A model generated the notes under the pieces. That model searched no databases. It saw only the letters and a program-made list of their open reading frames with translations, and had not been told where the DNA came from. 64,000 nucleotides of DNA from Eledone cirrhosa (taxonomy: Eukaryota), in contig OZ024740.1 of assembly GCA_964016885.1 (NCBI GenBank), positions 311,922,001 through 311,986,000 of the forward strand, in the 5' to 3' direction. A program made the translations under genes and the position numbers. Shown here piece after piece: positions 41,431 to 44,602 of this stretch (positions within the stretch are counted from its first letter, which is position 1; each line of letters begins with the position of its first letter).

Positions 41431-41738
41431 CTTATATATATATATATATATATATATATATATATATATATATTGTGGAATTGTGGTAAGGAACCAAATG
41501 GATCATATATATATATATATATACATATATATATATATATATATATATATACATATATATATATATATATATATATATATATATATATATATATATATAT
41601 ATATATATATATATATATATATATGTGTGTGTGTGTGTATATATATATATATATATATATATATATATATATATATATATGAAAGACGTAAATAAGAAAA
41701 CTTTTTAAAAAATTAAAAATTAACTTACTAAAATTTTC

Positions 41739-41820
41739 ACTCCAACTAATTAGTTTCTGTAATGGGATAAAGATAGTTACGTAATATAACCATCGAGAAT
41801 TCATTACGTCATCAGGGAGT
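41739..41820 (-). ncRNA. Hammerhead with branched extended stem II (family A, copy 1)
   Basis: actcc CTGATGA c gtaatg [aattctc gatggtta-tattacg-taactatc tttatcc] cattac a GAAA ctaattag TT ggagt. Confidence 0.8.
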
Positions 41821-42276
41821 CTATTCTCATCTAAGTCTCCAGGCAATGCGCGGACACTAGGGACTCATATAAAAATAATAATAATTCGGTGGATGGAACA
41901 GCTAGCGGGGACTGGATTCCATGCACTGAAAAAGTTCGCTGTCTCTGGTCAAATGGCAGATTCTAAAGAATCAATCACGTGACACTGAGGCTAGTCGGAA
42001 GGAGTGGGCTGGTAAGATGACAAAAGCCTACTACCACACCAATGGATTAGTAGTGGTTTTGGCAGATTTGCTCAACAAATAAATAATTTGGAGATAAATA
42101 TAAAGAATTAGTATATCTACCAACATATGCGTACAGATGTACACTAATGCTAGCAAATACATAAGTTATGTCATAGTACCTAGGTGGTTCAATGCAGGGG
42201 GATGCAGAAAAAATATATGAAAGACGTAAATAAGAAAATTTAAAAAAAAATTAAAAATTAACTTACTAAAATTTTC

Positions 42277-42358
42277 ACTCCAACTAATTAGTTTCTGTAA
42301 TGGGATAAAGATAGTTACGTAATATAACCATCGAGAATTCATTACGTCATCAGGGAGT
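42277..42358 (-). ncRNA. Hammerhead with branched extended stem II (family A, copy 2)
   Basis: Same as copy 1; a third copy at 42819-42892 is truncated within the CUGAUGA box. Confidence 0.8.
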
Positions 42359-43200
42359 CTATTCTCAGCTAAGTCTCCAGGCAATGCGCGGACACTAGGG
42401 ACTCATATAAAAATAATAATAATTCGGTGGATGGAACAGCTAGCGGGGACTGGATTCCATGCACTGAAAAAGTTCGCTGTCTCTGGTCAAATGGCAGATT
42501 CTAAAGAATCAATCACGTGACACTGGGGCTAGTCGGAAGGAGTGGGTTGGTAAGATGACAAAAGCCTACTACCACACCAATGAATTAGTAGTGGTTTTGG
42601 CAGGTTTGCTCAACAAATAAATAATTTGGAGATAAATATAAAGAATTAGTATATCTACCAACATATGCGTACAGATGTACACTAATGCTAGCAAATACAT
42701 AAGTTATGTCATAGTACCTAGGTGGTTCAATGCAGGAGGATGCAGAACAAATATATGAAAGACGTAAATAAGAAAATTTAAAAAAAAATTAAAAATTAAC
42801 TTACTTACTAAAATTTTCACTCCAACTAATTAGTTTCTGTAATGGGATAAAGATAGTTAAGTAATATAACCATCGAGAATTCATTACGTCATACCTATGA
42901 CATAACTTATGTATTTGCTAGCATTAGTGTACATCTGTACGCATATGTTGGTAGATATACTAATTCTTTATATATATATATATATATATATATATATATT
43001 TATATATATATATATATATATATATATATATACATATATATATATATAGATAGATAAATCTACCAAAATATACGGTAGTGTCCAATCCGTATGAAGAACT
43101 CAATGTAATCCAAATATCATGAAAAGAGAAGATGTATTCAAAATATTTTTCGATGAAAATCACAGGAAAACTGAATCAAGATAAATTAATAAAAACAAAT

Positions 43201-43470
43201 TATATATAAATTAATAAAAATAATGAATAGAAACAAAGAAACAGTTCCTTATATTAAAAAATTCATCATTTTACGATCGTTTCTAGGATATATATGTGTG
43301 TGTTGGTATAATATATAGATCTATGTAAAAAAAACTTTTTTTACATAGATCTATATAATATACATACCAACACACACATATATATCCTAGAAACGATCGT
43401 AAAATGATGAATTTTTTAATATAAGGAACTGTTTCTTTGTTTTTATTCATTATTTTTATTAATTTATATA
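43201..43470. repeat. ~270-bp hairpin centred at 43335
   Basis: ...gatctatgtaaaaaaaa-c-tttttttacatagatc... with arms matching outwards. Confidence 0.9.
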
Positions 43471-43593
43471 TATATATATATATATATATATATATATATA
43501 TATATATATATATATATATATATATATATATATATATAATATGAGAGACGTAAAATAAGAAAATTATAAAATTAACTTACTTACTAAAATATC

Positions 43594-43675
43594 ACTTCCA
43601 ACTAATTAGTTTCTGGAATGGAGTTAATATATTTTCCGAAGAAGATATTGAGAAGCATTCCGTCGTCAGGAAAGT
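43594..43675 (-). ncRNA. Hammerhead with extended stem II (family B, inverted copy)
   Basis: Reverse complement of 44316-44397. Confidence 0.8.
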
Positions 43676-44315
43676 CTATTCTCGTATAAATTTCCAGGCA
43701 AAGCGAGGACTCTGGAAACTTATTAAAAAATAATTCAGTGGATAGGAAATAGCGAAGCGTGGACTGAATTCCTAGCCATTGAGAAAATCTCTGCCTCTGC
43801 GTCTGTGGCAAATTCAAAAAGAATCAAACACGTGACATCGAGGTCAATCAGTGGAAAGTGGTTCGCTATTGGAAGTGATATTTTAGTAATAAGTTAATTT
43901 TATAATTTTCTTATTTTACGTCTCTCATATTATTATTCTGCAACCCCATGCATTGAACCACAATGTTATTAAGACAAAACCTATATATTTGCTAGCATCG
44001 ATATGCATCTGTATGTATATATATGTTACTAGATATGAATTCTTTATAATTATCTCCAAATTATTTGTCGAGCAATATTGGCCATGACTGCTGCTATGGT
44101 AGTAGGCAGGCCGCTGTCTTAATAGCGAACCACTTTCCACTGATTGACCTCGATGTCACGTGTTTGATTCTTTTTGAATTTGCCACAGACGCAGAGGCAG
44201 AGATTTTCTCAATGGCTAGGAATTCAGTCCACGCTTCGCTATTTCCTATCCACTGAATTATTTTTTAATAAGTTTCCAGAGTCCTCGCTTTGCCTGGAAA
44301 TTTATACGAGAATAG

Positions 44316-44397
44316 ACTTTCCTGACGACGGAATGCTTCTCAATATCTTCTTCGGAAAATATATTTACTCCATTCCAGAAACTAATTAGTTGGAAGT
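44316..44397 (+). ncRNA. Hammerhead with extended stem II (family B)
   Basis: actttc CTGACGA c ggaatg [cttctca atatcttc-ttcg-gaaaatat atttactc] cattcc a GAAA ctaattag TT ggaagt. Confidence 0.85.
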
Positions 44398-44602
44398 GAT
44401 ATTTTAGTAAGTAAGTTAATTTTATAATTTTCTTATTTTACGTCTCTCGTATTATTGTTCTGCAACCCCGTGCATTGAACCACAATGTTATTAAGACAAA
44501 ACCTATATATTTGCTAGCATCGATATGCATCTGTATGTATATATATGTTACTAGATATGAATTCTTTATAATATATATATATATATATATATATATATAT
44601 AT

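Follow-up and report, generated by a model that had tools for sequence, protein, structure and literature searches.

A high-copy, non-coding hammerhead repeat family with two fixed ends in Eledone cirrhosa: a candidate retrozyme and its likely PLE helper

Two neighbouring insertions in a 64,000-nt stretch of the Eledone cirrhosa genome (contig OZ024740.1, positions 311,922,001 to 311,986,000; 'the window' below) belong to a high-copy family of non-coding hammerhead repeats. The element is very probably a non-autonomous PLE or retrozyme, a reading already put forward in the initial annotation and now backed by the anatomy and number of its copies across the genome and by covariation; it is probably a non-LTR retrozyme moved in trans by a Hydra-clade PLE through twin internal priming. 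Its inverted insertions combine one short and one long fixed end, its ribozyme carries an unusual mismatch at the base of stem II, and a short hairpin past its ends resembles one in a Hydra-clade PLE. Its value as a testable model lies in this variant ribozyme, in the rule for its ends and in the hairpin that it shares; the retrozyme class itself has been described, and we therefore present the family as a mechanistic lead rather than as a new kind of element.

Insertion anatomy and family size

The region 41675..44570 consists of two separate insertions, A and B, with (TA)n on both sides of each and with units that are about 73% identical (Table 1). Of its type I hammerhead motifs, four are complete and a fifth is truncated. 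The array spacings of 538 and 542 nt first given for A were reproduced from the N17 positions on the minus strand, as was the 521-nt monomer of B (43871-44391), and the absence of a credible ORF was borne out, as Met-started ORFs in the circularised monomer reach at most 58 aa (A) and 27 aa (B). The cores, palindromic stem III, GUU site, pairings of stems I and II, cUUCGg loop of B and C·A apposition are all as first described. A complete core had been claimed for every unit, which is true of four ribozymes; the third of A is cut at 42892 and lacks C3-U4-G5. B is no tandem of two ribozymes; it is an inverted insertion, with one ribozyme per strand. Contigs from three sequencing runs of unknown kind covered the repeat, a coverage uninformative on expression, and none of them spanned the locus.

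Table 1. Features of insertions A and B within the window (position 1 is the first nucleotide of the window)
Feature	Position	Strand	Description
Subfamily A long arm	41675..42892	-	2.26 head-to-tail units; meets (TA)n at its outer, 'short' fixed end (cleavage +69)
Subfamily A inverted arm	42895..42977	+	83 nt, unit +106 to +188; outer end is the 'long' fixed end into (TA)n
Hammerhead motif A1, type I	41739..41828	-	N17 at 41744; includes predicted pseudoknot strand 41823-41828
Hammerhead motif A2, type I	42277..42366	-	N17 at 42282
Hammerhead A3, truncated	42819..42892	-	N17 at 42824; without the first three core bases
Subfamily B inverted arm	43536..43870	-	335 nt, from unit 251 across the cleavage site to ~+63; meets (TA)n at its 'short' end
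Subfamily B long arm	43871..44570	+	from cleavage +1; a complete 521-nt monomer and a further 180 nt; meets (TA)n at its 'long' end
Hammerhead motif B, type I, minus copy	43594..43683	-	N17 at 43600
Hammerhead motif B, type I, plus copy	44308..44397	+	N17 at 44391
Bulged hairpin 3' of short start site	42188..42209, 42726-42747; 43936-43957, 44458-44479	-; +	predicted RT-binding site
Bulged hairpin 3' of long start site	42071..42093, 42609-42631; 44054-44072	-; +	resembles the Hydra-clade PLE hairpin at ~35533-35559

Outer ends of the element fall at two fixed sites, about 68 nt (short) and 183 nt (long) past the cleavage site, after which (TA)n begins. Exact matches to these (TA)n junctions number 4,178 in the genome for the short end (control, 1) and 2,240 for the long end (control, 5). 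The sample comprised 90 short-end and 30 long-end matches, in each case the first ones on contig C1, and dropping 10 of these 120 loci (nine duplicates and one without an anchored arm) left 110 non-redundant end-anchored loci, 72 of them inverted insertions and 38 single arms. The inverted insertions paired a short with a long end in 65 of 72 cases and two like ends in none, the other seven falling outside both classes; insertions A and B each follow the same short-plus-long rule. A strict one-of-each rule was not found described in the literature searched. In the end-anchored loci the 5' ends run into TA repeats, an inverted arm or unshared flanks; a clustering of 5' ends in the initial loci was set aside as selection bias, and the analysis was redone on the end-anchored set. 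The family displays traits of PLE-type insertion, namely partial tandems, an inverted 5'-truncated copy, a one-ended tail and a microsatellite target.

Two further inverted structures lie in the window. One, at 44860-48040, is a giant palindrome with arms of about 1.5 kb and a hammerhead at each outer end, bordered by (TA)n at a short end (+50) and a long end (+140), in keeping with the same end rule; it probably arose through inverted insertion of a relative, itself non-coding, of the Hydra-type PLE family treated below. The other, at 26680-27085, is small and consists of the Hydra-type repeat inserted in inverted form; here too a short end is paired with a long one.

A pattern for the type I hammerhead core matched the genome 10,832 times (reversed-pattern control, 0). 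DNA searches returned 3,578 first-look candidates for A and 2,456 for B, and the best among the 40 scored for each are 95-98% identical. From the collected loci we drew 89 distinct cleavage-to-cleavage monomers of 508-571 nt, which form 11 clusters at 91% identity and hence at least 11 subfamilies. As these clusters are 70-90% alike, A and B are subfamilies of one element. In tandem L030, units from two different subfamilies are joined, one about 88% and the other about 96% identical to A. The longest head-to-tail arrays have about 11 units. The monomer is poor in GC (0.36 and 0.35, i.e. below 45%) and folds stably as a circle (z of -4.8 and -3.7 relative to 40 shuffles). It had been described as long; with 51-972 bp reported for retrozymes (10.64898/2026.07.22.740005), its length is not unusual.

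Ribozyme and predicted pseudoknot

Stem II had been described as branched, whereas folding gives a collinear arrangement: a stem IIa of 6 bp, a pyrimidine-rich internal loop and a terminal hairpin. At 10.1-11.1 the canonical Watson-Crick pair is absent and a C·A mismatch takes its place, in 120 of the 126 ribozymes recovered by alignment from the end-anchored loci; the core is intact in 104 of these, and apart from this pair it follows the canonical sequence. At the same position U·U is known as a natural mismatch (PMC3088659), and given that tolerance and the otherwise canonical core we regard the C·A ribozyme as a variant. The mismatch disrupts the most conserved pair of stem II and may slow cleavage. 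In the 5' half of the core, which was not selected for, every position together with C10.1 is invariant in all 11 subfamily representatives except position 7, while elsewhere 52% of columns are invariant. Rfam scans of the window and of 41680-42900 returned no hammerhead, and the Rfam hammerhead models gave no match even at E 10.

Covariation of the helices, asserted from A and B alone, was examined in 21 ribozyme representatives, hand-picked from 35 clusters to drop junction-cut copies. Stem cells are paired in 95.7% of cases, and cells changed on both sides number 36, compared with 12.3 after shuffling (reached in 0 of 500 shuffles, under a control that ignores relatedness); one stem II pair occurs as UA, GC, AU and CG. 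Two pair-level measures on the same representatives did not exceed the shuffle (141/500 and 203/500), and the covariation score was 0.282, with slid controls at or below 0.082. In folds of single A monomers the core mispairs with stem III; two copies co-fold into a dimeric form, and palindromic helix III has been proposed to act through dimers (PMC4209133). The ribozyme region of B folds no more stably than shuffles. Judged from its sequence, the hammerhead of this family is quite probably active.

A pseudoknot of 5-7 bp is predicted between the strand upstream of stem I and the 5' side of the internal loop, which complement each other. At least 5 bp can form in 30 of 31 recurrent types, with a score of 12.8 against 9.2 for letter shuffles. 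A compensatory change is also seen, the U occurring opposite A in 9 of 11 copies and opposite G in 1 of 155; because the compensatory copies all come from one sublineage, they represent one or two events, not nine. Exchanging pseudoknot partners between types made no difference relative to cognate pairs (966/2000). The pseudoknot is therefore offered as a prediction with modest support.

Template, helper and proposed mechanism

Among 175 arms, 134 run across a cleavage site and 33 across two, and the template must thus have been uncleaved or religated RNA. Their 5' ends are enriched at +1 to +22 (28 against 10.6 expected, P 7e-6; in later passes 7 against 2.6, P 0.016; this bin was chosen post hoc), with a second excess at 463-506. 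The excess is compatible with a share of cleaved templates or with stalling of the RT at the ribozyme. Units of one insertion share 16-43% of variants, against 4% between insertions, and are not uniform: concordance at shared variants was 29/90, 250/348 and 36/41, and array L303 is mosaic. Such heterogeneity weighs against, without deciding, the copying of a single circle.

These observations bear on the strongest rival, a linear-only PLE parasite that would move, SINE-like, as uncleaved read-through RNA, with a slow or protein-dependent hammerhead and no stable circles. The frequent crossing of cleavage sites and the partial heterogeneity of arrays both suit it, as does the possibility that the C·A mismatch weakens catalysis; moreover, an anole PLE used mainly uncleaved RNA in vitro, and its ribozyme needed protein (PMC11167929). 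It accounts less well for the retention of core, stems and predicted pseudoknot across 11 subfamilies, for 5' ends in excess directly past the cleavage site, for an array of about 11 units that is nearly uniform (9 variable columns over 9 monomers) or for a monomer that folds strongly as a circle. We consider it unlikely and on sequence grounds slightly favour the production of abundant RNA circles from the element.

Which enzyme moves a non-coding retrozyme of this kind may be signalled by the hairpins that follow its two fixed ends. For every one of the 11 subfamily representatives, the best alignment falls at one and the same place, the first hairpin, in the pLTR of the Hydra-type PLE family in the window. 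Measured against 300 shuffles, seven of the 11 alignments were matched by four or fewer, two were marginal and two were at chance (100 and 156). The likeness is confined to an AT-rich stretch of about 28-57 nt, with no extended homology to the pLTR. Across the whole window the hairpin pattern matches this element and repeats of the Hydra-type family alone; having been built after the fact, it informs on specificity only. The Hydra-type family, represented by a copy at 35256-37650 with two pLTRs, has 52,277 first-look candidates in the genome and two ends of its own; these lie at about +50 and +140, and a bulged hairpin of similar form comes after each. The ORF of that copy stops before the nuclease domain, which copies L242-L270 have.

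The neighbouring PLEs had been called Naiad-like; their nuclease is C-terminal and hammerheads are present, and by motifs they belong to the Hydra clade. They carry its set of a C-terminal GIY-YIG, CxCx5C, DKT, RW motif, CxxC, CxH, a hammerhead and (TA)n, and the adjacent PLE at 39401-41181 consists of an RT followed by a C-terminal GIY-YIG, with the CxCx5C linker, CxxC, CxH and its own hammerhead. Naiads, as portrayed in PMC8557442, have an N-terminal GIY-YIG, no canonical hammerheads and mere remnants in cephalopods, and a Naiad helper was rejected on those grounds.

Searches for an autonomous partner returned none, whether by tblastn of seven window PLE peptides on loci L001-L090 and L091-L120, by nhmmer of the unit on 30 Hydra loci or through a short-stem-II C·A pattern (196 matches; control, 49); Pfam yielded nothing useful for four PLE peptides. 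As no autonomous element carrying the unit was found, we can only infer the clade of the helper, and a Hydra-clade PLE is, from these sequence likenesses, the probable candidate. That an ordinary autonomous PLE escaped sampling, and that the units are its pLTRs or 3' truncations, is very improbable. Tandem, inverted and tailed insertions in a TA target are indeed the anatomy of autonomous PLEs (PMC8557442), and the searches scored the best candidates only; yet the units close head to tail on themselves without an ORF, in up to about 11 copies, the 5' ends of end-anchored loci show the varied exits described above, and among 100 listed of the 189 matches to a divergent-continuation pattern all continue as unit sequence. 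Least credible is a satellite that spread through unequal crossing-over and retains a dead remnant of a ribozyme. Two variants are common to monomers 3 and 7 of array L301, which points to later duplication; the end rule already largely refutes this reading, and the covarying ribozyme and the thousands of dispersed short insertions, variably truncated at the 5' side and ending at fixed sites in (TA)n, speak against it.

The window and the collected loci contain other repeats. By their motifs, we take an intact-looking 1,153-aa ORF at 2833-6294 (minus) to be a non-LTR retrotransposon and a broken pol at 29987-32618 (minus) to be that of an LTR-retrotransposon. A third local family is formed by type I hammerhead motifs at 7996-8045 and 27788-27838, whose stem III reads TATATA. 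An 82-nt direct repeat at 38779-38860 and 39323-39404, spaced 544 nt, is possibly another tandem unit, with no clear hammerhead called there, and between A and B, at 43201-43472, lies a palindromic repeat with 109-nt arms and deep contig coverage. Other hammerhead families with a C·A apposition and short stem II occur at L302 (also L116 and L118-L120), at L096, L107 and L108, and at L093 and L097; one C·A short-stem-II family is a 438-nt tandem unit ending in (TG)n. A further PLE at 8850-10641 (minus), with a C-terminal GIY-YIG and a CxxC-type linker, is Neptune-like by motif, a label taken from PMC8557442.

For the retrozyme reading we propose the following course. Arrays would be transcribed, and the ribozyme would cut part of the RNA, likely as a dimer via palindromic stem III and with assistance from the pseudoknot, into monomers that may be circularised. 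A PLE RT/endonuclease would then bind the two bulged hairpins on the RNA and nick both (TA)n strands, with priming at +68 from one nick and at +183 from the other. Both cDNAs would run back over uncleaved or religated junctions and be joined at short homologies, giving an inverted insertion; where only one arm was kept, a simple 5'-truncated tandem would result. In its most specific form, which we advance tentatively, a Hydra-clade RT/endonuclease dimer would sit on two hairpins of one RNA and prime each target strand from a different fixed site, leaving one short and one long end, and about 10,000 copies of a pseudoknotted C·A hammerhead retrozyme would record PLE integration. If true, this would provide a defined cis-signal linking a circular-RNA retrozyme to its helper clade, as well as a general explanation of the PLE tail and inversion. 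The tail sits at one end of PLEs (PMC8557442) and is defined by two internal RT start sites (PMC11167929); how PLEs come to insert in tandem and inverted form with a tail on one side, and what enzyme serves animal retrozymes, are stated as open (PMC8557442, PMC7229834, 10.64898/2026.07.22.740005).

Comparison with known systems

No description of this family was found in the literature searched; Repbase and Dfam, which lay outside the comparison, may already name it. It offers thousands of young insertions, with a strict end rule in the sample, and a short candidate binding hairpin common to a Hydra-clade element, and it reveals a large class of hammerheads invisible to Rfam. The unit is a minimal 530-nt substrate for in vitro assay, and the two start sites of its insertions would open the PLE copying mechanism to testing. 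Among the hammerhead variants of PMC3088659 and PMC4209133 there are precedents for a 10.1-11.1 mismatch (U·U), for loop I-II pseudoknots, for dimers formed through a palindromic stem III and for an additional base on the 5' side of stem II; a C·A at 10.1-11.1 and a pseudoknot from the internal loop of a long stem II were not found in the text available from those sources.

Non-LTR retrozymes with circular RNA have been reported from coral, mussel and axolotl (PMC7229834), and retrozymes of 51-972 bp have been argued to be non-autonomous PLE derivatives (10.64898/2026.07.22.740005). Like the metazoan elements of both accounts, the family is built of tandem units that code for no protein and carry a single type I hammerhead; GC is low (35-36%), self-pairing is strong, and copies number in the thousands, in a genome that also has PLEs. 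Its monomers are longer than the 170-400 nt of PMC7229834 and within the wider range of the second account. As far as the available text of these accounts extends, C10.1·A11.1, the extended stem II and the predicted pseudoknot occur only here, and the fixed twin ends, inverted insertions and shared RT-start hairpin have no counterpart in them. Cleavage and circles, predicted here, have been demonstrated for metazoan retrozymes. Eight of nine predicted Xenopus retrozymes tested gave no cleavage in vitro (10.64898/2026.07.22.740005).

With Hydra-clade PLEs as presented in PMC8557442, the family shares the (TA)n target, a terminal-repeat hammerhead, tandem and inverted insertions and a one-ended tail, and with the Hydra-clade family of the window it shares short and long ends and a hairpin past a fixed end. 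It differs in lacking an ORF and in its ribozyme and stem III, and its tail of about 115 nt exceeds both the 30-40 bp of PMC8557442 and the roughly 90 nt of the local Hydra family. A mechanistic parallel is the Poseidon_Ac PLE of anole (PMC11167929), in which two internal RT starts downstream of the hammerhead also define the tail and both strands of an AT-rich target are cut and extended, as shown there and as suggested here by sequence. In Poseidon_Ac, by that account, the strands showed no difference in start site, and the starts lie in an AC-rich stem-loop inside the ORF, whereas each inverted insertion of the Eledone family uses one start of each kind.
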